Source: Acidimicrobiia bacterium (lineage in GTDB: Bacteria; Actinomycetota; Acidimicrobiia; Spongiisociales; ZC4RG35). Taken from it: a DNA stretch of 64,000 bases. The notes under the pieces were generated by a model, which made no database searches, had not been told where the DNA came from, and saw nothing but the letters and a program-made list of their open reading frames with translations. The stretch is from contig OZ244856.1 of assembly GCA_965220995.1 (NCBI GenBank), positions 97,407-161,406 of the forward strand, read 5' to 3'. Of the stretch, positions 5,577 through 63,113 are shown one piece after another (within the stretch, counting starts at the first letter, position 1; every line of letters starts with the position of its first letter). Made by a program: the position numbers and the translations under genes.

Positions 5577-6501
5577 CATTTTCGCCGCCACCGTCATCGT
5601 GGCAACCTTGTCGTCGGGAATCCGATTGGCGGTCCCCCTTCTGCTGGCGTCGCTGGGAGAGGCGTTCGGGCAGCGCAGCGGAGTGCTCAACCTGGGAGTG
5701 GACGGAATCATGCTGCTCGGCGCCTTCGGCGGCTACTACACCACCCTGAAGACCCAGAGCCCCTGGATGGGCTTGGCGGTGGGTCTCTTGGTGGGGCTGG
5801 CCCTGGGCCTGCTGTCATCGGTGATAAGCGTTTCCCTGCGCGCCGAACAGGGGATCAGCGGTATCGGCGTGTACCTGTTCGGGCTGGGCATGAGCGACCT
5901 GCTGTTCCAGCGGCTGGTGGGGACCCCTCTGCCCGTCAAGCCCTTCACCAAGACACCCATACCCGGTCTGTCGGAGATTCCGGTGCTGGGGGACCTGTTC
6001 TTCAATCACAGCATCCCCATCTACCTGGCCTTTTTGTCCGTACCCATCGCCACGGTGATCATCAACCGGACCCGGTTCGGGATGAACATCCGGGCGGTGG
6101 GGGAGAACCCCGAGGCGGCCGACTCCCAGGGAGTCAGCGTCACCCGGGTCCGTTATGCCGCCGTCACCATCGGGGGAGTGCTGGCGGGTGCGGCGGGTGC
6201 GGTTCTCGCCATCAGCCTGGGGATCTTCCAGCAGAACCTCACCAACGCCCAAGGCTTCATAGCCATCGCCTTGGTGTATTTCGGAGCGTGGAGACCGCTG
6301 GGGGTGATGGCCGGATCCCTGGTGTACGGGATGGTCTCGGCAATAGTGCTGCTGCTCAAGACCCGGGGGATCATCCCCCTGGGGGCCTCCGACCTGGCCG
6401 CCATGATCCCGGCGGTGATCACCGTCCTGGCCCTGGTGCTGGCGGCCCGGCGCTTCCGGGCCCCCACCGCTCTCACCAAGCCTTTCATAAGAGGGGGATA
6501 G
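5569..6501 (+). CDS. ABC transporter permease (permease 2)
   Basis: Multi-TM protein. MADIF start overlaps the end of permease 1, suggesting translational coupling. Typical second permease of BMP-family uptake systems. Confidence 0.8.
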   Translation: MADIFAATVIVATLSSGIRLAVPLLLASLGEAFGQRSGVLNLGVDGIMLLGAFGGYYTTLKTQSPWMGLAVGLLVGLALGLLSSVISVSLRAEQGISGIGVYLFGLGMSDLLFQRLVGTPLPVKPFTKTPIPGLSEIPVLGDLFFNHSIPIYLAFLSVPIATVIINRTRFGMNIRAVGENPEAADSQGVSVTRVRYAAVTIGGVLAGAAGAVLAISLGIFQQNLTNAQGFIAIALVYFGAWRPLGVMAGSLVYGMVSAIVLLLKTRGIIPLGASDLAAMIPAVITVLALVLAARRFRAPTALTKPFIRGG

Positions 6502-8567: not shown

Positions 8568-8607
8568 CCGAAAACGGAAACAAGGAACGTCTGACAGGGT
8601 GAGCGCG

Positions 8608-10128
8608 ATGACCAATCTCTTGGAGATGCGGGGAGTCACCAAGCGCTTCCCCGGCGTGCTGGCCAATGATCGAATCGATTTCGATCTGCGCGCCGGGGAG
8701 GTGCACACCCTGTTGGGAGAAAACGGCGCCGGCAAGAGCACCCTGATGAAAATCCTCTACGGGCTCTATCAGCCTGACGAGGGGGAGCTTTTGATCGGTG
8801 GGGCACCCACTCGGATCGGAAGCCCGATCGACGCCATTGAGCACGGGATCGGGATGGTGCACCAACACTTCATGCTGGTTCCCAGTCTCACGGTCACCGA
8901 GAACGTGGCGATGGGCGCCATCTCACGCAAGAGAAGCAGGATGAACCTGCGGGGGGTGGCCGATCGGATCCGGGAACTGTCGGAATCTCATGGGCTGGCC
9001 GTCGATCCCGACGCTCACATTTGGCAACTGTCGGTGGGCGAACGCCAAAGGGTGGAGATCATCAAGGCCCTGTATCGGGATGTCAAGATGCTGGTGCTGG
9101 ACGAACCCACCGCGGTGTTGACTCCCGGCGAGGTGGAGGATCTGTTCAACATCCTCCGTCAGATGGCCCAGGAGGGGCGGGGTCTGGTGTTCATCTCTCA
9201 CAAACTCCATGAGGTGCTGGCCCTGAGCGACCGGATCACCGTTCTTCGCCATGGCCGGGTGACCGGGGAGGTGGAGGCCGGGGAAGCCACCCGCGAGATG
9301 CTGGCTTCGATGATGGTGGGCCGTCCGGTCCGCCTTGCGCCCGACAAGCCGCCCTTGGCGCCGGGTCGGACCCGTTTGAATATCCGCGATCTGACGGTCA
9401 TGGGCGACCGGGGCCTTCCGGCCCTGCAGAACCTGGACCTGCAGGTCCGGGAAGGAGAGATTCTGGGTGTGGCCGGCGTCTCGGGTAACGGGCAACGCGA
9501 GTTGGCCGAGGCCATAGCCGGACTGCGGAAACCGGTTTCGGGAGCGATCGAAGTCAACGACAACGACGTGGCGGGCCGCAAGCCTTCCGCAGTGAGAGCG
9601 GCAGGTTTGGCCTACGTGCCCGAGGAACGAGAGCGGGACGGCGCCATCGGCGCTTTCACCGTGTCGGAGAATCTGATTCTGGTGAACCATGACCAGCCCC
9701 CCATGAGCCGCAGGGGTTTTTTGCGCAACGGCGAGATTCGCAGTCGCGGCCGGCGTTTGGTCGACAATTTTTCGGTGGTTACTCCCGGTTTGGATGTTCC
9801 GGCTTCCAATCTTTCGGGAGGCAACCTGCAAAAGCTGATACTGGCTCGGGAACTATCGGGTTCGCCTTCCGTGCTGGTGGCGTCCCAACCCACCCGGGGA
9901 GTGGATATCGGCGCCGCCGAGTACATCCATGATCGCCTCATCCAGCAGCGCGGCTCCCAGTCGGTGGCCATCCTGCTGATATCCGAGGACCTGGACGAGG
10001 TGTTGGGTTTGGCCGATCGGATTGTGGTGATCTATGAGGGCCGCATCGTGGGAGAAGTAAGCGGGGAGGAAGCAGACCGCCAGACCATCGGTTTGATGAT
10101 GGCCGGCGTGGGGGTCGCAGAGGAGTGA
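8608..10128 (+). CDS. ABC transporter ATP-binding protein with duplicated ATPase domains (sugar/nucleoside type)
   Basis: Two Walker A motifs (GENGAGKST; GVSGNGQRE), an LSGG/LSVGE signature and two Walker B motifs. Start set at MTNLLEMRGV, because the track ORF begins inside the SBP gene. Confidence 0.85.
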   Translation: MTNLLEMRGVTKRFPGVLANDRIDFDLRAGEVHTLLGENGAGKSTLMKILYGLYQPDEGELLIGGAPTRIGSPIDAIEHGIGMVHQHFMLVPSLTVTENVAMGAISRKRSRMNLRGVADRIRELSESHGLAVDPDAHIWQLSVGERQRVEIIKALYRDVKMLVLDEPTAVLTPGEVEDLFNILRQMAQEGRGLVFISHKLHEVLALSDRITVLRHGRVTGEVEAGEATREMLASMMVGRPVRLAPDKPPLAPGRTRLNIRDLTVMGDRGLPALQNLDLQVREGEILGVAGVSGNGQRELAEAIAGLRKPVSGAIEVNDNDVAGRKPSAVRAAGLAYVPEERERDGAIGAFTVSENLILVNHDQPPMSRRGFLRNGEIRSRGRRLVDNFSVVTPGLDVPASNLSGGNLQKLILARELSGSPSVLVASQPTRGVDIGAAEYIHDRLIQQRGSQSVAILLISEDLDEVLGLADRIVVIYEGRIVGEVSGEEADRQTIGLMMAGVGVAEE

Positions 10129-10180
10129 CCCCTCGAGTCAAGCCCGGTGAACAGCAGCCCATAACAGAGGAGGCGCCTTT

Positions 10181-11026
10181 ATGTCCAGCCAAGTGGTAAC
10201 CGCCGCTCTTGTCCAGTCGGAATGGACCGGTGACAAGGAGTCGATGGTGGAAAAGAACATCGGCTATGCCAGGGAAGCCGCCTCCCGGGGGGCCCGGGTG
10301 CTGTGTTTCCAGGAGATTTTCAACAGCCCCTACTTCTGCAATGTGCAGGACAGCGACAACTATTCCTACGCCGAGCCGATCCCCGACGGCCCCACTATCA
10401 CCAGGATGATTTCTTTGGCCCGCGAGACCAAGATGGTGCTGGTGGTTCCCATCTATGAGGTGGTGGACGAGGGGACCTTTTACAACGCCGCGGCGGTGAT
10501 CGACGCCGACGGAACCTACCTGGGAAAATATCGCAAGACCCATATTCCCCAGGTGAAGGGTTTCTGGGAAAAGTTCTATTTCAAGCCGGGGAACCTGGGC
10601 TACCCCGTGTTCGACACCGCAGTGGGAAGAATCGGCGTGTACATCTGCTACGATCGCCACTTCCCCGAAGGGTGGCGGGTGCTGGGCCTGAAAGGCGCCC
10701 GGATCGTTTTCAACCCTTCCGCCACCACCCGCGGGCACTCCAAGCACCTCTGGCAACTGGAGCAGCCCGCCTCGGCCGTGGCCAACGAATACTTCGTGGG
10801 CGCTATCAACCGGGTGGGATCCGAGGGCCTGACGGACACCGATTATTACGGGTCCTCATACTTTGTCAATCCCCGCGGAGAGATAGTGGGAGAAACCGCG
10901 TCGGATACCGAGGAAGAGGTGTTGGTGCGCCAACTTGATCTGGGACTGGTGGAAGAGGTCCGCCGTTACTGGGCCTTCTACCGGGACCGCCGACCCGAGG
11001 TCTACGAAGAGGTGGCGGCTCCCTGA
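10181..11026 (+). CDS. Beta-ureidopropionase / N-carbamoyl-amine amidase-like CN-hydrolase (nitrilase superfamily)
   Basis: Nitrilase-superfamily fold with catalytic-Cys context 'GVYICYDRHFPE', 'VLCFQE', 'FYFKPG'. It resembles beta-alanine synthase / N-carbamoylputrescine amidase and is the last gene of the transporter operon. Confidence 0.8.
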   Translation: MSSQVVTAALVQSEWTGDKESMVEKNIGYAREAASRGARVLCFQEIFNSPYFCNVQDSDNYSYAEPIPDGPTITRMISLARETKMVLVVPIYEVVDEGTFYNAAAVIDADGTYLGKYRKTHIPQVKGFWEKFYFKPGNLGYPVFDTAVGRIGVYICYDRHFPEGWRVLGLKGARIVFNPSATTRGHSKHLWQLEQPASAVANEYFVGAINRVGSEGLTDTDYYGSSYFVNPRGEIVGETASDTEEEVLVRQLDLGLVEEVRRYWAFYRDRRPEVYEEVAAP

Positions 11027-13902: not shown

Positions 13903-14556
13903 TTGAGGTTTGTCAATCGCACTCACGCCGGGCGGCGTCTGGCCCGTTTGCTTGATCACCTGCGCAACCAACCCGTGGTGGTTCTCGGCCTGCCCCGCGG
14001 CGGCGTGCCGGTGGGCTTTCAGGTGGCCCGTCGACTCTCGGCGCCCCTGGAAGTGCTGCTGGTGCGAAAACTCGGGGCGCCTTTCCAACCGGAGTTGGCC
14101 ATGGGCGCCATCGGCGAAGGCGAAATCCGGATCATCGACCAGGAGCGTGTGCGCCAGTTGGGCATCAAACCCGATCAGATAGACCGGGTGGAACGACAGG
14201 AGCGAAAGGAACTGGACCGGCAGGGGAAGGTCTTTCGGCAGGGCCGGCGGTCCATTGATCTGATGGGCAGGACGGCGATCATCGTGGATGACGGGGTGGC
14301 CACCGGGTCCACCGCCCTGGCCGCCTGCTCCATCGCCCGACGGCTCGGCGCCGACCGGATCGTGATGGCCACCCCGGTTGCTCCCCGCGAGGTTGTTCCG
14401 ACTTTCGAGCAGGCGGTCGACCAGTTCGTGGCGGTGACCACTCCCCAAAGGATGGGCGCTATCGGATTCTTCTACGCAGACTTTCGTCCCACCCCCGATT
14501 CCGAGGTGATTGATCTGTTGGAGTGCTCCCGCCGCACCGATCCCGGCCCGGACTGA
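13903..14556 (+). CDS. Phosphoribosyltransferase-family protein (type I PRTase fold)
   Basis: PRPP-binding motif 'TAIIVDDGVATGST' plus an N-terminal 'VVLGLPRGGVPVG' hood. The start is uncertain: a TTG at 13903 is in frame, and the track ORF overlaps the divergent MscS gene. Confidence 0.6.
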   Translation: MRFVNRTHAGRRLARLLDHLRNQPVVVLGLPRGGVPVGFQVARRLSAPLEVLLVRKLGAPFQPELAMGAIGEGEIRIIDQERVRQLGIKPDQIDRVERQERKELDRQGKVFRQGRRSIDLMGRTAIIVDDGVATGSTALAACSIARRLGADRIVMATPVAPREVVPTFEQAVDQFVAVTTPQRMGAIGFFYADFRPTPDSEVIDLLECSRRTDPGPD

Positions 14557-37774: not shown

Positions 37775-38098
37775 TCAGAAGAACCGGAGGAGTATCCCCA
37801 CTGCTCCGAGGATCGCCAAGGCTATCCACACGGTGCGTCCGAAGGCCCTGTGCAGTCCGGCGATCTGTACCTCGATTTTGGCGATCTCCACTTCAATTCT
37901 GCTGTTGAGGGTGGTCTCCAGTCGGTCCATTCGACCGTTGAGGCTCCCTTCCAGTTGGTCCATTCGACCGTTGAGGCTCCCTTCCAGTCGGTCCATCCTG
38001 TTTTCCAGGTCGTGTTTGACCAGCATGACGTCGCCTTTGGTGGCGGGTTTCGTCATCCAGTCGTCCTCGGCGATCAACTTTTCTACCTCCAGAGCCAT
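37775..38098 (-). CDS. Small coiled-coil protein with C-terminal transmembrane anchor (DUF1640-like), containing an 11-aa tandem repeat
   Basis: RMDRLEGSLNG / RMDQLEGSLNG / RMDRLETTLNS repeats, then a hydrophobic tail 'VWIALAILGAVGILLRFF'. Confidence 0.5.
   Translation of the reverse strand: MALEVEKLIAEDDWMTKPATKGDVMLVKHDLENRMDRLEGSLNGRMDQLEGSLNGRMDRLETTLNSRIEVEIAKIEVQIAGLHRAFGRTVWIALAILGAVGILLRFF
37925..38010. repeat. 33-nt tandem repeat (about 2.6 copies) inside the small coiled-coil gene
   Basis: TCCATTCGACCGTTGAGGCTCCCTTCCAGTTGG is repeated head-to-tail, as seen directly in the sequence. Confidence 0.6.
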
Positions 38099-51819: not shown

Positions 51820-51980
51820 GGCCGCTTTCCGGACTTATAGAGACTTTAAGGGCTTATAGGAAAAATGCTATAACTTCAACAAGTCCCTATAACTCCACGT
51901 CCCACGCACAACCTCCTCCCCCCAACTTATAGGAACTTGTTACACTTATAGAAAAAACGCTATAACTTCAACAAGTCTCT
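51820..51980. repeat. AT-rich iteron-like array: two roughly 42-bp direct repeats carrying 8 copies of a CTATAA(C/G) heptamer
   Basis: GCTTATAGGAAAAATGCTATAACTTCAACAAGTCCCTATAAC (51842-51883) and CACTTATAGAAAAAACGCTATAACTTCAACAAGTCTCTATAAC (51934-51976). CTTATAG/CTATAAC copies are at 51824, 51843, 51858, 51878, 51915, 51936, 51950 and 51970. Confidence 0.65.
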
Positions 51981-52019
51981 ATAACCCGTCAACACATCAC
52001 CCCCGATCAACCCTGATAG

Positions 52020-53195
52020 ATGGACCCCAGCCAGAATCCCTACAGTCCCGGAGCAGGGGCCCAACCTCCTGCCCTGGTTGGGCGAGACCGGGAACTGGAA
52101 CAGTTCGACATCGCAGTCGCGCGACTCGGCAGGGGGCTCTACGATCGCAGCTTCCTGGTAAGCGGGCTCCGCGGTGTGGGCAAGACCGTTCTTCTCTCCG
52201 AGTACTGCAGCATCGCCCATCAGCACAAATGGGCATACCAGCAAATTGAGGCTGCCAGGAACCTCGATCTGCCACGCGTCATTGCGGATCGGATACGTCT
52301 GGCCTTGCTGCAGTTATCCCCAGGCCGTCGTGTCGCTGCCCGTGGTCGCAGGGTGCTGCAAGTATTGAAATCTTTCAAAGTGCGGTGGAACCTGCCGGAA
52401 GGGGGCGAACTGGAAGTGGGTGTCGATCCCATTCCCGGCCGAGCCGACACGGGAATTCTCCAAGAAGATCTCACCGACCTCTTTATGGAGGTGGGCGAGT
52501 ACGCCCGAGAGCGGAAAGTCGGGGTTCTCATCACTATTGATGAAGCCCAATACCTGGACAAGAGCCAGCTTGTGCCGTTGCTCATGGGGCTTCACATGAT
52601 CGGCCAGAGGAATCTCCCCTTCATGGTGGTGTGCGCAGGGCTGCCATCCCTTCCCGGCTTGGTAGGTGAAGCCCGATCGTACGCCGAACGATTGTTTACC
52701 TTTGCAACCATCAACAGTCTTCAACCGGAGGAGTCCGTCACTGCACTAACCGCCCCGGCGGCCCGACACGACATCCAATGGGATGATGACGCCTTGGCAA
52801 GAATCGTTGAAGAGACGTCCGGTTATCCCTATTTCCTCCAGGAGTTCGGGAAACAGGCCTGGAACTTTGCGACCGATACTCACCGAATCACCCTGGCTGA
52901 TGTAGAGAGCACCGTACCGATGGCGATCCGAGAGCTTGACCTGGGTTTCTTCAATGTGCGGTTCCACCGCACCACTGGCGCAGAGAGAGCCTATCTGGCC
53001 ACCATGGCCGCCCTTGGACCCGGCCCCCACCCATCAGGGCAAGTGGCATCCAAAATGGGCAGAACGACTTCCCAGGTCAGCACTCTCCGCAACACCTTGT
53101 TGGCCAAGGGCCTTTGCTACGCCCCTCGCTACGGCGAAATCGCCTTCACCGTGCCCATGTTTGATCAGTTCCTCCTCCGCCGTCTGTCGTCATGA
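52020..53195 (+). CDS. AAA+ ATPase (Arch_ATPase/AAA_16-like, ORC/Cdc6-type P-loop) with C-terminal wHTH-like region
   Basis: 'LVGRDRELEQ...LVSGLRGVGKTVLL' Walker A and 'VLITIDEAQYL' Walker B. Function unknown. Confidence 0.65.
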   Translation: MDPSQNPYSPGAGAQPPALVGRDRELEQFDIAVARLGRGLYDRSFLVSGLRGVGKTVLLSEYCSIAHQHKWAYQQIEAARNLDLPRVIADRIRLALLQLSPGRRVAARGRRVLQVLKSFKVRWNLPEGGELEVGVDPIPGRADTGILQEDLTDLFMEVGEYARERKVGVLITIDEAQYLDKSQLVPLLMGLHMIGQRNLPFMVVCAGLPSLPGLVGEARSYAERLFTFATINSLQPEESVTALTAPAARHDIQWDDDALARIVEETSGYPYFLQEFGKQAWNFATDTHRITLADVESTVPMAIRELDLGFFNVRFHRTTGAERAYLATMAALGPGPHPSGQVASKMGRTTSQVSTLRNTLLAKGLCYAPRYGEIAFTVPMFDQFLLRRLSS

Positions 53196-53244: not shown

Positions 53245-54361
53245 TCAACCCACCGTGATCAGTTGGCGGTTGTCGTTCACATCCGACAGCAGCTGCGCCC
53301 CCTCGGCGGTCACTGCCACCATGTCCTTGAGTTGCAACCCGAAGCCGTGGCCGGTGTTGTAGATCAGGGGTTCCACGCCGAACACCATGCCCTCCTGCAG
53401 TACCTGGTCGTGGCGGGGGCTGATGTAGGGATGCTCATGCAACGACAGACCGATTCCATGACCAACGAACGAAAAGAGCGGCAGGCCGAGCGGGCCGCAC
53501 AGGGCCTCAAACCGATCCCACACCATCCGGCTTGACACTCCCGGCCCGATGGTTTCGAGCAGCACATCCCGGCACTCCACCAGCTTGGACCATATCTCCA
53601 CCGCGGACGGGGACGGGGAACCCACCACCGCCGTGCGACACACCCCGGCGTGGTAGCCCTCCGCCACCGCGAAGATCTCCACCCGGCACACATCGCCCTC
53701 CTGCAGCACCCGGCCGGTGGGACCCACATTGGCCAGTTGGCTGCGTGGCCCGGTGGCCACGATCATCAGCCGGAAGTCCTCGGCGCCTCCCCGGTAGATG
53801 CCGTCGGTGAGAGCCGCGGCTATCTCCATCTCGGTGTCTCCCGCCTTCACCGATCGGAGCGCCTCGCCGATGGATGAGTCGGAGATACGGGACAGACGGG
53901 CCAGGAGATCCAATTCCTCGGGGGTCTTGACCTGCCGCTGCCTTCCCAGCCAGGAGTCGGCGGCCACCCAGTCCACCCCCGGGGCAGCGTTTTGCAGTCG
54001 CGCGAAATCGGCGGCCGGCAGGTATCCCAACTCCACTCCCAGCCGCCCCCGCCCCAGGCCCAGGCGATTCAGGAGGCCCGCCAGACATACCATCGGGTCG
54101 TCGTCGAATTCGTCCCACACGGCCACCTGGGCGGCGCCGGTTCGTTGGCGCACCATGGCCTCTTCCACCCCGATGCACATCACCGCCGGTTCGCCGTCCC
54201 GGGGCAGCACCATCGCGGCATGCCTCCATCTCATCAACGGCTGGGAAGGGACCACGAACCCGGCCGGATAGGCGAAGTTTTCCGGAGAGCAGACCACCAA
54301 CCCGTCCCAGTCCTCCTGCTCCAGGGCGGCATGGAGACGAGTGATAACTTCAGTTCTCATA
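53245..54361 (-). CDS. M24-family metallohydrolase (creatinase / Xaa-Pro aminopeptidase-like), second copy
   Basis: Creatinase N-domain plus pita-bread domain with 'HGIGLSLHEHP' metal-ligand context. Start set at MRTEVIT (GGGGGA RBS). Confidence 0.8.
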
Positions 54362-54465
54362 TCAGGATTCCCCCAACTGTCCGCGCAAAGGGTAACCACC
54401 GGGAAGGTGCCATGCCCCACCCCGGTATCGTTGGGCGGAGCAAGTCAAAGGAGCCGAACCAAGCA

Positions 54466-55353
54466 ATGGACCAGGTACCCATCCCGGTGCGCGGACCGGC
54501 GGAAAAATTCCAGACCCTGTTCGACGCCGACCACCCCGATACCGGCGAGGGCGTGGCCCTCCACCCTGATTTCGCCGCCATCTACGGCGGACCGCTTCGG
54601 CTTCGGCCGCCCACCGACGGGCTGCCCCTCTTGGCAATGAACTTTGTAGCCGCCCACGACGGCCGAGTCGCTTTCAACCACCCCGACCATCGGGGGGGAG
54701 GTCCCATCTCGGGTTTCGATGACAACGACGTGTGGCTGATGGGCCTGCTCAGAGCCCGGGCCGATGCGGTGGTGGTGGGCGAGGGGACCCTTCGGGCCGA
54801 ACCCCGCCATATCAACACCCCCGACGACATCTACCCCAAGGACGCCGAGGCATTCGCGTCTCTCCGCAGCCATGAGAAGCGGTCGGAACTGCCCATCTTC
54901 TCCTATATCACCTTCGCCGGGAATCTCCCACCCCAATCCCGGGTCTTCACCTTGGAGAATGCTCACATAGTGGTCGCCACCACCGCCATCGGCGCCCGAC
55001 AAATCCGGGAGACCGTTCGCCCCGCCGGAAGGCTCGACATCCTGGAATTCGGAGACGACGGCGTGGACCTGGAGCGCTATGCGCGGATCATGGCCGCCGA
55101 CTACGGGGTGGACTTCCTGCTGTGCGAGGGTGGGGCCACCCTGTACGGCGCCCTGCTCCGGGCGGGGATCGTGAACGAACCCTTCATCACCCGGTCGCCG
55201 CTGGTGGTGGGAGAAAACCCCGACAACCCCCGTCCCAGCCTGGTGGAGGGTGTCGGTTGGCTGCCCGACGACGCGCCGCGCATGCAGATCCTCTCGGTTC
55301 GCAAGGCCGGTGAATACCTTTACATGCGCTACCGCGCCACCTATCCCGCCTAG
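54466..55353 (+). CDS. RibD C-terminal-domain / dihydrofolate-reductase-like NADPH-dependent reductase
   Basis: 'LLAMNFVAAHDGRVAF' and 'VDFLLCEGGATLYGALL' are typical of the bacterial bifunctional deaminase-reductase C-terminal (RibD_C) family. Confidence 0.65.
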   Translation: MDQVPIPVRGPAEKFQTLFDADHPDTGEGVALHPDFAAIYGGPLRLRPPTDGLPLLAMNFVAAHDGRVAFNHPDHRGGGPISGFDDNDVWLMGLLRARADAVVVGEGTLRAEPRHINTPDDIYPKDAEAFASLRSHEKRSELPIFSYITFAGNLPPQSRVFTLENAHIVVATTAIGARQIRETVRPAGRLDILEFGDDGVDLERYARIMAADYGVDFLLCEGGATLYGALLRAGIVNEPFITRSPLVVGENPDNPRPSLVEGVGWLPDDAPRMQILSVRKAGEYLYMRYRATYPA

Positions 55354-55368
55354 CCACCGGCCCGCCCG

Positions 55369-56832
55369 TTGGAGACTGTGACCCCTCTCACCTCCGCAAC
55401 CCTCATCGAACACCTGGAGTTCGCCATTACCTGCAACCGGGACAACCAGGTGATCAGAGACGGGGCGATCCTGATCGAAAACGATCGCATCAAGGATCTG
55501 GGAACCACCGAGCAGGTGTATCAACGTCTCCGGTCGGAAAACACCAATCATCCGCCCAAGCGCCGGAGTGGTCGACGCCTGGGAATCACTCCCGGGCTGG
55601 TGGATTCGCACGTACATCTGTCCGAAACCCTGTCGCGGGCGGTGTTTCCCGATGTGATCGACACCCGTACCTGGGTATTTCACTGGGCCAAGCCCTTTTA
55701 CGCTCACGTGAGCACCGCCGACGAAGCAATCGGGTCTCTGCTCGGAACCGCCGAGATGCTCCGGGGAGGAACCACCTGCTTTCTGGACATGGGCGCCCAG
55801 AACGACCCGGCCCCGGTGGCCGCCGCGGTGGAGCAAACCGGGATCAGGGGCATCACCGGCCGTCACGCGGCCGACCGAAAACCCAAAGAGATCCCCCGGG
55901 GATGGTCCCCCCAGATGGTGGACCACCATTTCTTCCCCAACGCCGAGGTGGCATTGCAGGCCTTGGAGGACACGGTGCGAACCTGGAACGGAGCGGCCGG
56001 GGGGCGCTTGGGGGTGTGGGTGAACATCGAAGGGAAGGAACCCTGCAGCCTGGACCTGCACGTCGGCGCCCGGGAGTTGGCGGAGCGCCTGGGAGTGGGT
56101 GCCACCTATCATCTGGCCACTTCTCTACCCGAGGCGCACATCTCGCAGCGGCGGCATGGTATGTGGCCGATCACCCGGGTGGCCCAAGCCGGCGGCCTGG
56201 GTGACAACCTGGTGATAGCGCATGCGGTGGCCGTGACGCCCGATGAGGTGGAAGACTTGGCCGAACACCGCACCAAGGTGGCCTTTTGTCCCTCCACCTC
56301 CCTCAAACTCGCCAAAGGTGCCACAGCCATCGGGCAGTATCCGGAGATGATGGAGGCCGGGGTGACCGTGGGGTTGGGGACCGATGGGGTCTCGGCAGCC
56401 GGAAATCTCAACCTTCACCGTCAGATTCACCTGGCGGCCGGAATGTTCAAGGACGCCCGCATGGATGCTTCCCTGGTGGGCGCCCAGCGGGCATTGCGCA
56501 TGGCGACCATCGATGGCGCAACCGCGCTGGGGATGGAGTCGGAGATCGGGTCGCTGCAGATCGGTAAGAAGGCCGACTTCGTGCTGTGGAATCTGGATCA
56601 TCCCGACTGGGTTCCCTACGGAGACCCCCTTTCGGCGTTGGTATGGTCGGCGTCCACCGGATCGGTGCTGGAGACCTGGGTGGACGGGCGTCCCTGCTAC
56701 CGGGACGGCCGGGTGCTCGGAATCGACGAGGAGGCGCTCTTCGAGGAAGCACGGCAGAGAGCCGCCCACATCCGCGCCCGCGCCGGGCTCACCAGCCCCG
56801 ACGTTCCCCTGACCACCGCCCTCTACCAGTGA
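55369..56832 (+). CDS. Amidohydrolase of the TRZ/ATZ / guanine-deaminase / aminohydrolase subgroup
   Basis: 'PGLVDSHVHLSE' HxH, a later HxxE-type region, and 'GTDG' plus a C-terminal Asp, typical of nucleobase/s-triazine deaminases. Confidence 0.8.
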   Translation: METVTPLTSATLIEHLEFAITCNRDNQVIRDGAILIENDRIKDLGTTEQVYQRLRSENTNHPPKRRSGRRLGITPGLVDSHVHLSETLSRAVFPDVIDTRTWVFHWAKPFYAHVSTADEAIGSLLGTAEMLRGGTTCFLDMGAQNDPAPVAAAVEQTGIRGITGRHAADRKPKEIPRGWSPQMVDHHFFPNAEVALQALEDTVRTWNGAAGGRLGVWVNIEGKEPCSLDLHVGARELAERLGVGATYHLATSLPEAHISQRRHGMWPITRVAQAGGLGDNLVIAHAVAVTPDEVEDLAEHRTKVAFCPSTSLKLAKGATAIGQYPEMMEAGVTVGLGTDGVSAAGNLNLHRQIHLAAGMFKDARMDASLVGAQRALRMATIDGATALGMESEIGSLQIGKKADFVLWNLDHPDWVPYGDPLSALVWSASTGSVLETWVDGRPCYRDGRVLGIDEEALFEEARQRAAHIRARAGLTSPDVPLTTALYQ

Positions 56833-58046
56833 ACCTGCCCGTCAGCCGCCCCGGCGATCTGGTTTGCGGCGATCGTCCCCAGGGGATCGGCCCGGTGAGG
56901 GTTCCCGGATACGGACCGCCCCAGGTCATTTTTCTGCGAGACGGCGCAATCGGGGAAATCAGTCCCGCCCCCGCCGGCGCGGAGAACTCCAGTGAAGCGC
57001 CCACCCATTTGGCGCTGCCCGCCTTCTCCGAACCGCACCTGCATCCCGACCGCGCCTATGTGGGATCGCCGCGTGCTCCCCGCTCCCTGGAAGACGCTAT
57101 CGAGTTGGGTGTCCGCCCCGAAGGCTACGTGGTGGAGACCGCCGCCCGGCGCGCCCGGCGTCTGTTCACCACCCTCCTGAAGAACGGGGCCACCCGGGCG
57201 AGAGGCCATGTCGGGCATCTTCCCGGCTCCATCGCCCCACCCCGATGGCCGGTCATGAACCAGGTCCGCGCAGAACTGGCCGATCGCATCGAGATTGAAC
57301 TGGTGGCTTTCGCCGTGGAGGGCACCCTGGCCGATCCCGATGAAACCGACCGCCTCCGCCAGGACCTCGCCCAAGGCAGATACCAGTTGGTGGGGGGATC
57401 ACCCAACCACGACAGCCGACCCGAACGGTCGGTGCGGGCGCTTATGAGACTCGGGGCTGAAACGGGAGTAGAGGTGGACGTTCACATTGATGAGACGCTC
57501 GACCCCGCCCGCCTTCTGATGGACTTCGCCCTCGACGAGGTGGAGCGCCACAACCTGGCGGGCAAGGTCTCCTTCAGCCACAGTTGCCTGTTGAGCGCCC
57601 TCCCCGAGCCACAGACCCGCGCTCTGGCCCGGCGCATGGCCGGACTGGGGATCACCGTCAACTGCCAGCCCCGGACCAACTTGATCCTGCACGAATACCG
57701 GGTTCACTCGCCCCGTCGGGCCCTGGCCCCCATCAACCTGCTCCACCAAGAGGGGGTTCACGTGAGGCTGGGGGTCGACAACGTGGACGACACTTTTTGT
57801 CCTTTCCCCACCGCCGACCCGCTGGAGATGGGGTACCTGGCCCGAATGGCCGGACACCTCTATGATGATTCCCTCCTCCTTTCCGCTCTCAGCGACGGCC
57901 GCTCCACCCTCGGGGTCGGGGAGCGGGCCGACATGGTGCTGGTGGAGACGGACACCATCAACAAGGCTCTTGCTCTGCGGCCCTCGCGGGTTACCATGAG
58001 GGCAGGCATAGTGGTAGCCCGTGGCAACAACCGAGAACTCGGATAG
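56829..58046 (+). CDS. Cytosine-deaminase-like amidohydrolase (CodA / creatinine-deaminase family)
   Basis: 'LPAFSEPHLHPD' HxH and 'VDVHIDE' match the CodA family. GTG start overlaps the upstream stop (GTGA). Confidence 0.75.
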   Translation: MNLPVSRPGDLVCGDRPQGIGPVRVPGYGPPQVIFLRDGAIGEISPAPAGAENSSEAPTHLALPAFSEPHLHPDRAYVGSPRAPRSLEDAIELGVRPEGYVVETAARRARRLFTTLLKNGATRARGHVGHLPGSIAPPRWPVMNQVRAELADRIEIELVAFAVEGTLADPDETDRLRQDLAQGRYQLVGGSPNHDSRPERSVRALMRLGAETGVEVDVHIDETLDPARLLMDFALDEVERHNLAGKVSFSHSCLLSALPEPQTRALARRMAGLGITVNCQPRTNLILHEYRVHSPRRALAPINLLHQEGVHVRLGVDNVDDTFCPFPTADPLEMGYLARMAGHLYDDSLLLSALSDGRSTLGVGERADMVLVETDTINKALALRPSRVTMRAGIVVARGNNRELG

Positions 58047-58806
58047 GGGTCCGACTATTTCAACAGGCAATCTCCCAGACTCCACCCTGATCAACTTTGA
58101 CGGGGTGAGCAAAGTGTTCCCCGACGGAACCCATGCCGTGGACAATGTCTCCTTCTCGGTGAAGCCGGGGCAATTTGTAACGGTGGTGGGTCCCTCGGGG
58201 TGCGGAAAGTCCACTCTTCTGAGGATGGGATCAGGTTTGCTGCCCGTTACATCGGGCAACGTGCGTCGGGCCGAGGGCACTTTGGGCTATGTGTTTCAGG
58301 ACGCCACCCTGCTGCCATGGAGGACCGTGCAAAAAAACGTCGAACTGTTCTGCGAACTGCGGAAATTCAATCGGGAGGAACGCCGCCAGAGGGCCAACGA
58401 CGCCATTGAACTGGTGGGCCTGGGAGGGTTCAACGGTCACTATCCCACTGCTTTGTCGGGGGGAATGAAGATGCGGGTCTCCCTGGCCCGCTCCCTCACC
58501 TTGGATCCTCCTCTGTTCTTCTTCGACGAACCGTTCGGCGCCCTGGACGAGATCACCCGCGAATACCTGAACACCGAACTGCTCCGGATATTCGACCATG
58601 AGGGTTTCGGCGCGGTGTTCATAACCCACAATCTGTACGAGGCGGTTTTTCTTTCCACCGAGGTGCTGGTGATGTCCAAGCGACCGGGACGCATCCTGCA
58701 GTCCTTCCAGGTTCCGTTTCCCTATCCTCGCGACCTGGACCTGCGGTTCGACCCGGCATTCGCCGAACTGACCGGTGAGGTTTCCGAAGTGCTGAGAGAT
58801 GAATAG
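58021..58806 (+). CDS. ABC transporter ATP-binding protein (NitT/TauT nitrate/sulfonate/bicarbonate-type family)
   Basis: Walker A 'GPSGCGKST', signature 'LSGGMKMRVSLARSL' and Walker B 'FFFDEP'. Confidence 0.85.
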   Translation: MATTENSDRGPTISTGNLPDSTLINFDGVSKVFPDGTHAVDNVSFSVKPGQFVTVVGPSGCGKSTLLRMGSGLLPVTSGNVRRAEGTLGYVFQDATLLPWRTVQKNVELFCELRKFNREERRQRANDAIELVGLGGFNGHYPTALSGGMKMRVSLARSLTLDPPLFFFDEPFGALDEITREYLNTELLRIFDHEGFGAVFITHNLYEAVFLSTEVLVMSKRPGRILQSFQVPFPYPRDLDLRFDPAFAELTGEVSEVLRDE

Positions 58807-59616
58807 ATGACCGGATCCCAGTCCACGCCATCCCGCCTGCGGTCCTCCCTCAACCGACTTGGAGCGCCCATCCTGGTGCTGATGGCGGTGGTGGGGATTT
58901 GGTACTTCATCAGCCTGGGAATCCTCGATCCCGACCGTCAGTTTCTGCTTCCCGCTCCCAACGAGGTGATCGAGGTGGGCTTTTTGAACCAGGACAATCT
59001 GTTCCAGGTGTTGGAAGGGCTGCTCTGGACGGTGGCGGTCTCCATGTCGGGTCTGATTATCGCCATCGTTTTGGGGATGACCTCGGCCATCATGATGAGC
59101 CAGGCCAAGTGGATCGAGACCTCCTTTTATCCCTATGCGGTGGTGATCCAGACCGTGCCGATCCTGGCAATCGTCCCCCTGGTGGGCTTGTGGCTGGGAT
59201 TCGGGTTCACCAGCCGGGTGGTGGTGTGCGTGATCATTTCCATTTTCCCGATCATCACCAACACCCTGTTCGGCCTCCAGTCGGTGCCCGCCTCGTTCCA
59301 TGATCTGTTCACGCTGCACCGGGCCAACCGTTGGACCCGCCTGGTGAAGCTGCAGTTCCCCAATGCCCTGCCGGCCATCTTCACCGGGTTCCGAATCTCC
59401 GCCGGGCTGTCGGTGATCGGGGCCATCGTGGGCGAGTTCTTCTTCCGTAAGGGAATACCCGGCCTGGGACGGCTTCTCGATTTGTACCGGGCAAGGTTGC
59501 TCACCGAACAACTTTTCACCGCCCTGGTATTTTCCTCCCTGCTCGGCATCCTGGTCTTTTGGGGATTCGGGTTGTTGGGCAGGCTGGCGGTGGGCAAGTG
59601 GCACGAAACCACCTGA
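58807..59616 (+). CDS. ABC transporter permease (NitT/TauT family)
   Basis: Six-TM BPD-transporter fold with an EAA-like loop. Starts immediately after the ATPase gene. Confidence 0.85.
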   Translation: MTGSQSTPSRLRSSLNRLGAPILVLMAVVGIWYFISLGILDPDRQFLLPAPNEVIEVGFLNQDNLFQVLEGLLWTVAVSMSGLIIAIVLGMTSAIMMSQAKWIETSFYPYAVVIQTVPILAIVPLVGLWLGFGFTSRVVVCVIISIFPIITNTLFGLQSVPASFHDLFTLHRANRWTRLVKLQFPNALPAIFTGFRISAGLSVIGAIVGEFFFRKGIPGLGRLLDLYRARLLTEQLFTALVFSSLLGILVFWGFGLLGRLAVGKWHETT

Positions 59617-59668
59617 ATGCGTGGCCAGGCCCGATCGTCATATGAAAACCATTCAAACAACACGCTAA

Positions 59669-61936
59669 ATGAAAGGAGAATCTTCCATGAAACGCACTAA
59701 GAGGGCGACCAGGTGGCTGGCTGTCCTGGCTGTTCTTGCCCTGGTGGTGGCGGCCTGCGGAGACGACGAGGAGGCTGCCGATCCCGTGACCACGGCCGCG
59801 CCCACAACCACGGCCGCGCCCACAACCACGGCGGCGCCCACCGAGCCGGAAATGCCCGATGTGGCTTTGGCGGATGTGTGTCCGTCGACGATCGTGGTGC
59901 AGACCGACTGGTTCCCCGAGGCCGAGCACTCGGAGCTTTACCACTTGGCTGGTCAGGGCGGTGAGATCGACAGCACCAACGGAACCTACACCAACGAGAT
60001 CGGTGACACCGGAGTGATGCTGCAGGTTCGGGCCGGTGGCCCTTACATCGGCTTCCAAAACGACATCTCGCTGCTCTACCAGGATGAATCGATCCACTTG
60101 GCGTACACCAACACCGACGAGCAGGTGCGACTGTCGGCCTCCCAACCCACCATCGGGATCGTCGCTCCCCGCGACAAGAACCCCCAGATCGTGATGTGGG
60201 ACCCGGCTGTCTATTCCTTCGACAGCTTCGCCGACATCGGCGCCTCGGGCGCCACGTTGCTCTACTTCGAGGGCGCCACCTACATTGACTATCTGTTGGG
60301 CAAGGGCTGGGTCACCGAGGACCAGGTCGACGCCTCCTATGACGGGTCACCGGCCCGGTTCATAGCCGAAGGCAACCTGGTCCAGCAGGGATTCGCCTCC
60401 GCCGAGCCCTATCAGTATCAGAACGAGTTCGAGGACTGGGGCAAACCGGTCGATTTCATGCTGATCCACGACTCCGGCTTGGAGATGTATCCGCAGTTGT
60501 TGGCCACCAAGCCCGACATTGTCGAGGAATACCGCGAGTGCTGGGAACTGTTCGTGCCCATGGTGCAGCAGGCCCAGGTGGACTACGCGGCTGACCCGGC
60601 TGCCACCAACGCCCAGATCGTGGAGATCGTGGAGGCGTTGGACAGCTTCTGGACCTACGGCCCGGGAGTGGCACAGTACTCACACGACGCCCAGTTGGAG
60701 TTGGGACTGATCAGCAACGGACCCAACGACACCATCGGCGACTTCGACCTGGGTCGGGTCAACGAGGTGATCGCTCTACTGGCCGACATCTACGGACCCC
60801 AAGAACTTGAAACCTGGGATCCCAACGTGACCGCCGCCGACATCGTCACCAACGAATTCATCGACCCCAGCATCGGACTGCCCGATATGGACATGGCGGA
60901 AATGCCCGATGTGGCTTTGGCGGATGTGTGTCCGTCGACGATCGTGGTGCAGACCGACTGGTTCCCCGAGGCCGAGCACTCGGAGCTTTACCACTTGGCT
61001 GGTCAGGGCGGTGAGATCGACAGCACCAACGGAACCTACACCAACGAGATCGGTGACACCGGAGTGATGCTGCAGGTTCGGGCCGGTGGCCCTTACATCG
61101 GCTTCCAAAACGACATCTCGCTGCTCTACCAGGATGAATCGATCCACTTGGCGTACACCAACACCGACGAGCAGGTGCGACTGTCGGCCTCCCAACCCAC
61201 CATCGGGATCGTCGCTCCCCGCGACAAGAACCCCCAGATCGTGATGTGGGACCCGGCTGTCTATTCCTTCGACAGCTTCGCCGACATCGGCGCCTCGGGC
61301 GCCACGTTGCTCTACTTCGAGGGCGCCACCTACATTGACTATCTGTTGGGCAAGGGCTGGGTCACCGAGGACCAGGTCGACGCCTCCTATGACGGGTCAC
61401 CGGCCCGGTTCATAGCCGAAGGCAACCTGGTCCAGCAGGGATTCGCCTCCGCCGAGCCCTATCAGTATCAGAACGAGTTCGAGGACTGGGGCAAACCGGT
61501 CGATTTCATGCTGATCCACGACTCCGGCTTGGAGATGTATCCGCAGTTGTTGGCCACCAAGCCCGACATTGTCGAGGAATACCGCGAGTGCTGGGAACTG
61601 TTCGTGCCCATGGTGCAGCAGGCCCAGGTGGACTACGCGGCTGACCCGGCTGCCACCAACGCCCAGATCGTGGAGATCGTGGAGGCGTTGGACAGCTTCT
61701 GGACCTACGGCCCGGGAGTGGCACAGTACTCACACGACGCCCAGTTGGAGTTGGGACTGATCAGCAACGGACCCAACGACACCATCGGCGACTTCGACCT
61801 GGGTCGGGTCAACGAGGTGATCGCTCTACTGGCCGACATCTACGGACCCCAAGAACTTGAAACCTGGGATCCCAACGTGACCGCCGCCGACATCGTCACC
61901 AACGAATTCATCGACCCCAGCATCGGACTACCGTAA
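59669..61936 (+). CDS. Tandem-duplicated NMT1/THI5-like (SsuA-type) ABC substrate-binding lipoprotein
   Basis: Signal peptide plus lipobox (LVVAACGDDEE), a TTAAPTT linker, then two identical roughly 350-aa SBP modules (EMPDVALADVCPSTIVVQTDWFPEAEHSELYHLAGQGG...). Confidence 0.8.
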   Translation: MKGESSMKRTKRATRWLAVLAVLALVVAACGDDEEAADPVTTAAPTTTAAPTTTAAPTEPEMPDVALADVCPSTIVVQTDWFPEAEHSELYHLAGQGGEIDSTNGTYTNEIGDTGVMLQVRAGGPYIGFQNDISLLYQDESIHLAYTNTDEQVRLSASQPTIGIVAPRDKNPQIVMWDPAVYSFDSFADIGASGATLLYFEGATYIDYLLGKGWVTEDQVDASYDGSPARFIAEGNLVQQGFASAEPYQYQNEFEDWGKPVDFMLIHDSGLEMYPQLLATKPDIVEEYRECWELFVPMVQQAQVDYAADPAATNAQIVEIVEALDSFWTYGPGVAQYSHDAQLELGLISNGPNDTIGDFDLGRVNEVIALLADIYGPQELETWDPNVTAADIVTNEFIDPSIGLPDMDMAEMPDVALADVCPSTIVVQTDWFPEAEHSELYHLAGQGGEIDSTNGTYTNEIGDTGVMLQVRAGGPYIGFQNDISLLYQDESIHLAYTNTDEQVRLSASQPTIGIVAPRDKNPQIVMWDPAVYSFDSFADIGASGATLLYFEGATYIDYLLGKGWVTEDQVDASYDGSPARFIAEGNLVQQGFASAEPYQYQNEFEDWGKPVDFMLIHDSGLEMYPQLLATKPDIVEEYRECWELFVPMVQQAQVDYAADPAATNAQIVEIVEALDSFWTYGPGVAQYSHDAQLELGLISNGPNDTIGDFDLGRVNEVIALLADIYGPQELETWDPNVTAADIVTNEFIDPSIGLP
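59849..61930 (+). repeat. Perfect head-to-tail tandem duplication (period 1050 bp, about 1032 bp identical, 2 copies) within the SBP gene
   Basis: 59849-60880 is identical to 60899-61930 by direct inspection. The ORF track also lists identical internal ORFs at 60456/61506 and 60519/61569. Confidence 0.85.
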
Positions 61937-61965
61937 GCCGGCGCCGAAGAACCTATCACAGAAGA

Positions 61966-61995
61966 AAGGGGGCCCCACGGGGCCCCCTTTCTCTT
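61966..61995 (+). terminator. Rho-independent terminator (GGGGGCCCC-acg-GGGGCCCCC followed by a T-tract)
   Basis: GC stem followed by TTTCTCTTT, directly downstream of the SBP stop codon. Confidence 0.6.
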
Positions 61996-62262
61996 TGGAT
62001 CCAGCCCATCACCCACCGTTTTCAGAGCCACCAAGCCGCGAAACTTAGCTACTAACCCGCGAAAATCACCCTGCTCTCCTCACCCGTTGGGCCCCGGCCC
62101 CCGCCACCACCTATCCAGAGGATCGGACGCGGTCTGCCAGACGCTGGGAAGCCCGCGTCCGATAATAAATATGACCTCGCCGCTTGAAAGCAGCGTCCTG
62201 CACGGTCGGAACGACGTCGGAACAGACCAGGAGGTGTTTTTGACTATGCCAATATGCACCAT

Positions 62263-62300
62263 CCCTGAGGCCAAGTCAACTCTCAGGCCCCCTCTTTTTT
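62263..62300 (+). terminator. Orphan terminator-like hairpin (CCTGAGG..CCTCAGG plus CCCCCTCTTTTTT) with no credible upstream + strand CDS
   Basis: The hairpin plus U-tract is on the + strand inside the 3' intergenic region of convergent genes. It may end a small RNA starting around 62000-62250. Confidence 0.3.
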
Positions 62301-62333
62301 CGCGACAATTCGGCCGGTCGCGAACCGCCGGGT

Positions 62334-63113
62334 TTATGTGGCCCTTGAATCCCGCCAGGCCACCCACTTCTCCAGTGCCGACAGGTCAAAGTCGGGTCCG
62401 ACGGTGCTCGCCAGCAGGAACGTGATGCCTGCGGCGAGATAGTCGTCTCCCATCGAAACCGGCCCCGTTTCCACGTTGCATGACCGTTCGATCATGGCCG
62501 GATCGCGGCCCTCCACCTCGCACCATCGGTCGATCACCGCGTTCTTGTGCGCCATGGTCTCCGGAGTTCCGAACCCGTGCCAGATGTCGCCGTGACGGGC
62601 CACCAAACGCAGGGTCTTTTTCTCCCCCATGCCGCCGATCAGAATCGGGATCTTGCGAAGCGGCGGCGGATTGAGTTGCTCCCACCGAGCCTCGATGCGG
62701 GGTAAAGCCTCCGCCAAGTCATCCAAACGGCTGCCGGCGGTTCCGAACGGGTACCCGTAGGAGTCATAGTCGAAACGGAACCATCCCGACCCGATGCCCA
62801 GAATCAGGCGGGCGTCGGAAATGTGATCCACGGTGCGGGCCATGTCCGCCAACAGGTCCGGGTTGCGATAGGAGTTGCAGGTCACCAACGCGCCGATCTC
62901 CACCCGGCTGGTGGATTCTGCCCAGGCGCCCAGCATCGTCCAGCATTCGTAGTGCTTGCCCCGGGCGTCCCCGTACAGCGGAAAGAAGTGGTCCCAGTTG
63001 AACACCGCATCCGCTCCGATTTCCTCCGCTTGGCGGGCCGCATCTCGGATGGCGGAATAGTCGGCGTGCTGGGGCTGCAATTGCAACCCGATTCTGATCG
63101 GAAAGTTGGTCAT
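62334..63113 (-). CDS. LLM-class (luciferase-like) F420-dependent oxidoreductase
   Basis: 'ILGIGSGWFRFDYDSYGYPFG' and the overall TIM-barrel LLM pattern. Length 259 aa. Confidence 0.8.
   Translation of the reverse strand: MTNFPIRIGLQLQPQHADYSAIRDAARQAEEIGADAVFNWDHFFPLYGDARGKHYECWTMLGAWAESTSRVEIGALVTCNSYRNPDLLADMARTVDHISDARLILGIGSGWFRFDYDSYGYPFGTAGSRLDDLAEALPRIEARWEQLNPPPLRKIPILIGGMGEKKTLRLVARHGDIWHGFGTPETMAHKNAVIDRWCEVEGRDPAMIERSCNVETGPVSMGDDYLAAGITFLLASTVGPDFDLSALEKWVAWRDSRAT

Follow-up and report, generated by a model that had tools for sequence, protein, structure and literature searches.

A two-module substrate-binding lipoprotein of an Acidimicrobiia bacterium whose identical modules were probably re-homogenised by recombination

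How can two binding modules encoded within a single bacterial gene be identical down to their silent sites? This question is raised by a stretch of 64,000 nucleotides (nt) from an Acidimicrobiia bacterium (assembly GCA_965220995.1, contig OZ244856.1, positions 97,407 to 161,406; hereafter the window, in whose own coordinates all positions are given), where the gene at 59669-61936 encodes a substrate-binding lipoprotein consisting of two modules (M1 and M2). We propose that this protein is very probably an old two-module receptor of an ATP-binding cassette (ABC) importer of the NitT/TauT type and that its modules have been re-homogenised by recombination, a process that would be recurrent in many lineages.

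The repeat and the protein that it encodes

A base-by-base comparison at an offset of 1050 nt revealed 1033 nt of uninterrupted identity, with 59847-60879 matching 60897-61929 at 100%, silent sites included, and a repeat search that reports at most 300 nt per match returned the same pair. Directly outside both ends of the identical tract, identity falls to 20-50% per 20-nt block. A chance origin of a perfect repeat of 1 kb in 64 kb is impossible. As the period of 1050 nt equals 350 codons, the repeat is in frame within the open reading frame (ORF). The gene is organized as follows.

59669-61936, plus strand: gene for the two-module substrate-binding lipoprotein (listed as an ORF of 755 amino acids)
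59687-59758, plus strand: putative lipoprotein signal peptide with lipobox LVVAAC (MKRTKRATRWLAVLAVLALVVAAC; read from the sequence as ...LALVVAAC-G)
59789-59841, plus strand: 18-nt tandem repeat in 2.9 copies (Tandem Repeats Finder), encoding a TTAAPT stalk from the lipid anchor to module 1, of low model confidence
59847-60879, plus strand: repeat copy 1, binding module 1, with a predicted ThiY/Thi5-like type II periplasmic-binding fold
60880-60896, plus strand: inter-module linker, 17 unique nt, the ancestral junction; non-repeated in the window, with CTGCCCGATATGGACATGG matching a related locus (L008, see below)
60897-61929, plus strand: repeat copy 2, binding module 2, identical to copy 1 and with a leader of the M1 type (EMPDVALADVCP)

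The 17 nt between the copies (GCCCGATATGGACATGG) occur once in the window and encode the linker ...GLP-DMDMA-EMPDV.... Moreover, different Leu-Pro codons follow the two copies: copy 1 runs into CTG CCC, and copy 2 into CTA CCG and the stop codon TAA. Because of the unique linker and these differing codons, the arrangement is not a clean head-to-tail duplication. An earlier note on this DNA, made from the sequence alone, had described nucleotide-identical, in-frame copies joined by a DMDMAEMPD linker, which our comparison bears out. Its description of a perfect 1050-bp duplication stands in part: the coordinates (59849-61930) and the length of about 1032 bp were essentially right, but the identity covers 1033 of the 1050 nt, the other 17 being the unique linker. 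In a half-versus-half comparison of the ORFs in the window, the only internally duplicated ones were two binding-protein genes, namely, this gene and the gene at 6555-8567.

Translation likely starts at the ATG at 59687 rather than at the ATG at 59669 chosen by the ORF finder, since an AAAGGAG motif can be read at the proper distance upstream and the resulting protein agrees with the N termini of homologues (MK..K..RWLAxLAVLALV). The lipobox cysteine (C30) is invariant in an alignment of 50 homologues. Judging from the signal peptide and the lipobox cysteine, the protein is predicted to be a bacterial lipoprotein, and it carries two complete binding modules of 344 residues each (residues 61-404 and 411-754) in one polypeptide.

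Related loci and the history of the two modules

A homologue search over 5.8 billion proteins recovered about 80 clusters of two-module homologues of about 750 amino acids, at 38-93% identity, mostly from Acidimicrobiia metagenome-assembled genomes (MAGs) and some on megabase contigs. Further, a scan of the GTDB species representatives yielded 79 loci (labelled L001 onwards, with L001-L011 being the 11 close relatives of the window's clade), 26 of which have two modules, many on single-contig MAG chromosomes of 2.3-4.1 Mb. The chromosome-scale MAGs with OZ and OY accessions are presumably long-read assemblies, given their single-contig megabase size and the Sanger sponge-metagenome papers. In the chromosome-scale MAGs, M1 and M2 share 94-100% of their nucleotides: they are 100% identical in L009, L014, L016, L024, and L026 (as they also are in the short-read loci L020 and L022) and have one or two mismatches in L011, L015, L018, and L021. 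The remaining loci range from 86.5 to 99.4%. As the architecture and a graded series of divergence between modules are seen in independent assemblies of both technologies, the extra copy cannot be spurious. The suggestion of an invented copy, which the earlier note had raised as an alternative, is thus contradicted by the two-module clusters and by the identical modules in chromosome-scale MAGs, and its view that the architecture is real and recurrent holds up in the comparison with orthologues.

In phylogenetic trees, M1 and M2 of one protein are mutual nearest relatives in almost every lineage, with amino acid identities of mostly 93-100% between M1 and M2 and only 40-50% between orthologues. 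Taken alone, this sister pattern is compatible with either repeated fresh duplication or concerted evolution. In the window's clade, five observations settle the choice in favour of concerted evolution, namely, the junction, the divergence from relatives, the grouping of modules by position, the mosaic differences, and the ends of the exchanged tracts. All 11 clade relatives have ...IDPSIGLP-[S/D]-M-[D/E]-... between their modules, and the sequence CTGCCCGATATGGACATGG, which contains the 17-nt linker of the window, is identical in L008 at the start of its linker, although the modules of L008 and the window differ at 18% of nucleotides and the flanking genes at 26%. Across the 11 relatives, the flanking genes have diverged from those of the window by 21-26%, and yet the position-specific codons (CCC after M1 and CCG-stop after M2) are kept across the species of the clade. 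The window modules differ from those of every relative at 12-18% of nucleotides and at 25-37% of third positions (at least 84 third-position sites), whereas M1 and M2 of the window differ at 0 of 1033 sites.

Overwriting of one copy by the other is best resolved in a sub-clade consisting of L001-L004, L006, and L007, which have flank distances of 0.08-0.14 and form one clade in a tree of the flanking genes (200 bootstraps in these analyses). The M2 modules of L003, L004, and L006 are monophyletic in 200 of 200 bootstraps; their M1 modules group with both modules of L007 (191/200), with the M1 of L004 and both L007 modules forming a narrower group (199/200), and the two L002 modules are both placed among the M2 type (153/200). 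Since L007 and L002 carry modules of a single type among species whose modules group by position, one copy must have overwritten the other after speciation, and in either direction. The L004 pair is a mosaic, with a perfect run of 293 nt amid 113 differences (expected, 44 nt; p<0.0005), and in L002 and L007 the differences between M1 and M2 lie only near the module ends. The leaders tell of similar exchanges: M2 of the window has the M1-type leader (EMPDVALADVCP) where the M2 modules of relatives have M[A/T]MA[S/T]L..., and M1 of L009 carries an M2-type leader and is followed by the M2-type codons CTA CCG. In diverged pairs, the codon changes between M1 and M2 are mostly synonymous (73 versus 39 in L003, for example), and both modules are therefore under purifying selection. 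Altogether, the modules are more alike within a genome than between orthologues, silent sites included; the duplication preceded the split of the species; and mosaic or single-type copies occur, which are the marks of concerted evolution. Homogenisation by gene conversion, one of the possibilities named in the earlier note, is favoured by the ancestral junction, the positional orthology in sister species, and the mosaic tracts.

We suggest that the gene encodes a lipid-anchored binding protein with two complete ThiY/Thi5-fold modules on a short flexible linker. The doubling of the module is older than the split of the species in the window's clade. One module would recently have been overwritten with the other through homologous recombination of the direct repeats, by way of either RecA-type gene conversion or rounds of unequal sister-chromatid exchange that retained the linker, and the copying in the window most likely ran from module 1 to module 2. 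Such overwriting recurs in many lineages and amounts to concerted evolution. Both modules may bind the same small ligand, with either of them docking on the permease, so that the density of receptors per anchor would be doubled. Perfect direct repeats recombine readily, and tandem duplications are lost in a RecA-dependent manner; selection would have to retain the two copies although such repeats collapse easily.

Other histories could produce identical neighbours. If a gene with one module had been duplicated in tandem very recently and in this lineage alone, too short a time ago for the copies to diverge, the absence of differences over 1033 nt would be accounted for; tandem duplications arise readily, and homologues with a single module occur scattered through the tree. 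Such an origin may hold for some distant lineages. For the window it is very improbable. Such a duplication would give identity over the whole period, but 17 nt are unique here; L008 shares these 17 nt, and the junctions of all 11 relatives, whose flanks are far diverged, are homologous to them. The earlier note's option of a very recent duplication is contradicted by this shared junction. In addition, the difference between CCC and CCG after the modules is kept across species, and in none of the two-module loci that we examined does the length of identity equal the period. Cycling of the copy number, in which the tandem repeatedly collapses to one module and expands again so that identity reflects re-duplication, draws on the same ease of recombination between perfect repeats, on the interspersed single-module relatives, and on the rearranged second module of L019, but we give it hardly any weight. 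With a collapse the linker would be lost, and a new junction would arise on re-expansion, whereas all members of the clade have kept the ancestral linker along with the codons specific to each position. The partial mosaic tracts, too, are typical of conversion rather than of cycling of whole units. As a new junction is expected from either de novo duplication or collapse followed by re-duplication, neither fits.

An effect of assembly is a further candidate, and we consider it improbable though less remote. The second copy could be spurious, or real copies that differ slightly could have been written as one consensus twice. The repeat of 1 kb is longer than short reads, and the exact window protein is not on record elsewhere in an exact-sequence look-up, so that there is no independent assembly of the same sequence. 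Against a spurious copy, a linker that joins the end of a module to the start of a module can derive only from a true tandem, and the same architecture is present in dozens of independent assemblies. Against a duplicated consensus stand the single-contig, chromosome-scale MAGs cited above, in which the modules are either 100% identical (L009, L014, L016, L024, and L026) or separated by one or two differences (L011, L015, L018, and L021). Moreover, short-read SPAdes contigs of relatives retain 7-147 differences between the copies, and collapse is therefore not systematic.

Several points also weigh against an old tandem homogenised by recombination. The linker of the window is shorter than that of most relatives, and the 5' end of the identical tract falls where homology is hardly visible; the last event in the window may thus have been more complex than a simple conversion. 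A bubble-popping assembler may have erased a few true differences between the window copies. At the deep branches of the family tree, proteins with one module and proteins with two are intermingled, and hence some two-module lineages may stem from independent duplications instead of one ancient event. The broken second module of L019 indicates that two modules are dispensable in places, and a functional advantage of two identical modules would be hypothetical.

The architecture varies among the related loci. The syntenic orthologue in L019 (6103-7755 of OZ244034.1) has a frameshift at the end of module 1 and a module 2 truncated at both ends; over 332 nt, what is left of module 2 still matches module 1 at 100%. 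The tandem in L019 seems to have decayed or been rearranged recently. In L016, the downstream gene (8193-11012) encodes a 939-amino-acid lipoprotein that combines a different receptor domain with a third copy of the ThiY-fold module. Several distant relatives have such a third copy in the downstream gene. Its nucleotide identity with the pair in the upstream gene is 99.4-99.9% in L012, L016, L024, and L025 (99.9% in L016, where the Ala/Glu-rich N-terminal stalks are 87% alike) and about 84% in L014 and L015, where the copies are older. Two further proteins fuse modules with other receptors: P0115 (1085 amino acids) joins one ThiY-fold module to a Bmp domain and an OpuAC-like domain, and P0049 (1007 amino acids, N-terminally incomplete) joins two ThiY-fold modules to an OpuAC-like domain. 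These fusions suggest that such bacteria generally tend to combine different receptors on a single anchor.

Fold, transporter context, and other features of the window

An AlphaFold2 model of a single module reached a predicted local distance difference test score (pLDDT) of 92.4 and a predicted template modelling score (pTM) of 0.91. The modelled fold has ThiY (3ix1) and Thi5 as its top structural matches, followed by NrtA, SsuA, and TauA, placing the module, as predicted, in the type II periplasmic-binding fold nearest to ThiY/Thi5. In the model of the full-length protein (pLDDT 86, pTM 0.53), the two modules are well folded, and the N-terminal stalk (residues 1-61) and the inter-module linker (residues 408-413) are disordered; the predicted protein looks like two independent beads on a string. 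Sequence searches gave no corresponding assignment. No Pfam family matched the whole protein at E<=0.01 or a single module at E<=10, NCBIfam gave no meaningful match for the two-module protein, and searches of PDB sequences with phmmer and with a 29-sequence profile returned nothing relevant. The designation of the modules as NMT1/THI5-like in the earlier note is therefore right at the level of the fold but has no counterpart among Pfam, NCBIfam, and PDB sequence matches. An exhaustive HMMER search over 1.84 billion representatives sized the module family at 899 clusters at E<=1e-3 and 217 at E<=1e-30 (clusters at 50% identity). Its members are mostly proteins with one module of about 400 amino acids; three of the 50%-identity clusters have two modules, and several members are fused to other domains.

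The binding-protein gene closes a set of transporter genes and is followed by a probable terminator; a second two-module binding-protein gene lies elsewhere in the window.

56586-58046, plus strand: cytosine-deaminase-like amidohydrolase (Pfam Amidohydro_3 and Amidohydro_1), the first gene of the conserved cluster
58021-58806, plus strand: ATP-binding subunit of an ABC transporter of the NitT/TauT type (Pfam ABC_tran; taurine and nitrate ABC ATPases, TauB and NtrCD-like, best in NCBIfam)
58807-59616, plus strand: ABC transporter permease (Pfam BPD_transp_1; NCBIfam SaoP, NtrB, SsuC, and TauC-like; synteny)
61964-61997, plus strand: probable intrinsic terminator, a GC-rich hairpin followed by TTTCTCTTT (RNA fold, −37.2 kcal/mol, z −4.4)
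6555-8567, plus strand: Bmp/PnrA-like two-module binding lipoprotein (Pfam Bmp twice)

A permease and an ATPase of the NitT/TauT family are thus encoded alongside the binding protein, and the ATPase gene adjoins the binding-protein gene in nearly all related loci. As the permease gene is the only one at the locus, the permease is presumably a homodimer. The amidohydrolase matches PRK05985, PRK06846, and cytosine deaminase subfamilies in NCBIfam over residues 113-480, its real start probably lies about 300 nt downstream of the ORF start at 56586, and it is syntenic in L001-L011. All 11 close relatives keep, in this order, the genes for the M24/creatinase-like protein, orf555, amidohydrolase, ATPase, permease, and binding protein, and in all of them the conserved order ends with a luciferase-like monooxygenase on the opposite strand. 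In the window, a creatinase/prolidase-like M24 peptidase and a 555-amino-acid ORF without a Pfam match lie on the minus strand (53245-56112), directly upstream of the genes for the amidohydrolase and the transporter, as in all close relatives; their products may act in the pathway to which the transported substrate belongs. The hairpin and its T-rich run sit 3' of the stop codon, although a simple terminator scan did not list them.

Nothing was found to support the pyrimidine-like ligand, such as hydroxymethylpyrimidine (HMP), that the earlier note had put forward. No Rfam family reached its gathering score in the window, where the thiamin pyrophosphate (TPP) riboswitch is absent, and at E<=1 over 55800-62400 Rfam gave nothing relevant, only weak matches on the terminator hairpin. 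A thiamin or HMP transporter was rejected on the lack of a riboswitch, of a sequence match, and of nearby thiamin genes. A substrate of the creatinine or creatine type, weakly suggested by the creatinase/M24-like neighbour and by the resemblance of the amidohydrolase to cytosine and creatinine deaminases, was not adopted either. As a weak guess, the ligand could be a small nitrogen-containing compound that is handled by the amidohydrolase.

The second two-module binding protein in the window, encoded at 6555-8567, lies in an ABC operon of its own, with permeases at 4395-6501 and a double ATPase at 8290-10128. Its modules are 90.3% identical in nucleotides over 803 nt and 91% identical in amino acids, in agreement with the divergence of about 10% that the earlier note had given for this tandem. 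Among 120 two-module homologues, the identity within a protein ranges from 74 to 100% and is at least 98% in 25, and it is high even in proteins with only 60-67% identity to the window protein. The gene at 6555-8567 is thus the same phenomenon of concerted evolution, at an earlier stage of divergence. It belongs to the Bmp/PnrA nucleoside-binding lipoproteins (PF02608), of which it is a two-module version with a like homogenisation; as Bmp/PnrA proteins and ThiY-fold modules represent unrelated fold classes from different transporter families, it is a parallel case only.

A more far-reaching reading, which we regard as possible but rather unlikely, is that sponge- and marine-associated Acidimicrobiia keep "bivalent" lipoproteins in which both identical modules are required and in which identity would be preserved by selection acting on continual conversion, in parallel in the ThiY-fold and Bmp families and between adjacent genes, with the module representing a family uncaptured by Pfam that would bind a new, amidohydrolase-linked ligand. 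At very low concentrations of substrate, for example, the pair could serve to load a homodimeric permease that offers one docking site. If this were true, intragenic concerted evolution would be long lasting in at least two unrelated families of binding proteins.

Further repeats were observed in the window. Two AT-rich direct repeats of 61 nt (51833-51985; 82% identical, 92 nt apart, with motifs CTTATAG and CTATAAC) are conspicuous in the GC-rich sequence and lie in the intergenic region just 5' of an AAA_16 ATPase gene (52020-53195); they could be arrays of operators or binding sites. Short tandem repeats lie in or near large ORFs at 37917-37996 (33 nt, 2.4 copies, 95%) and 14297-14338 (21 nt, two copies).

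Significance and comparison with known systems

Gene conversion that recurs inside a bacterial gene is phylogenetically resolved here, with sister species spanning the range from 13% divergence between modules to identity and with a parallel case in the same genome. For annotators and assemblers, perfect in-frame repeats of 1 kb in these binding-protein genes are biology and not artefact, and they also mark loci where short-read assemblies can misstate copy number or identity. The family itself, an uncharacterised group of binding proteins with a ThiY-like fold and without a Pfam model, comprises about 900 clusters at 50% identity. It is abundant in sponge-symbiont Acidimicrobiia, where the fusions with two modules or several receptors provide a natural experiment on the reasons for having more than one receptor per transporter. 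Our literature searches on tandem identical binding modules and on Acidimicrobiia binding proteins found no description of identical tandem modules in free binding lipoproteins.

The closest known systems in terms of fold are ThiY, the formylaminopyrimidine (FAMP)-binding protein (3ix1), the thiamin-binding protein 4nmy, and Thi5/NMT1, and, more broadly, SsuA, TauA, and NrtA of the NitT/TauT importers. Compared to ThiY/Thi5-type proteins, the window module is about 40 residues longer and occurs twice per polypeptide, and the two groups share 13-20% identity in structural alignments, with sequence similarity that is not detectable. In terms of receptor architecture, the relevant case is GlnPQ of Lactococcus lactis and other Gram-positive bacteria, which is reported to have two substrate-binding domains in tandem, covalently attached to the permease and unlike each other in specificity and affinity (10.1101/2020.12.19.423572, PMC8025302). 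Both systems place two complete binding domains with short linkers on one extracytoplasmic chain that serves one ABC importer. Unlike GlnPQ as described there, the window protein carries its modules on a separate lipoprotein with its own signal peptide and lipobox, and the permease is a separate ORF (58807-59616). The window modules are also 100% identical and have no difference between domains in sequence; because they are identical, in contrast to those of GlnPQ in that account, a broader substrate range cannot be the gain.

In terms of evolutionary process, Wang and Chen (2018) reported long-lasting, recurrent concerted evolution in 26 prokaryotic genes, such as tufA/tufB, and attributed it to gene conversion (PMC6053082); the terms "ABC transporter" and "binding protein" did not turn up when the text of that paper was searched. 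As with tufA/tufB, paralogues within a genome are closer to each other than to orthologues in other species, at synonymous sites as well, and in many lineages (PMC6053082). Unlike tufA/tufB, the units here are modules inside one ORF rather than separate genes, even though some relatives have a third copy in the next gene. The feature at 59669-61936 is hence best described as a combination of known kinds, namely, a ThiY-fold binding protein, tandem receptor domains, and concerted evolution driven by conversion.

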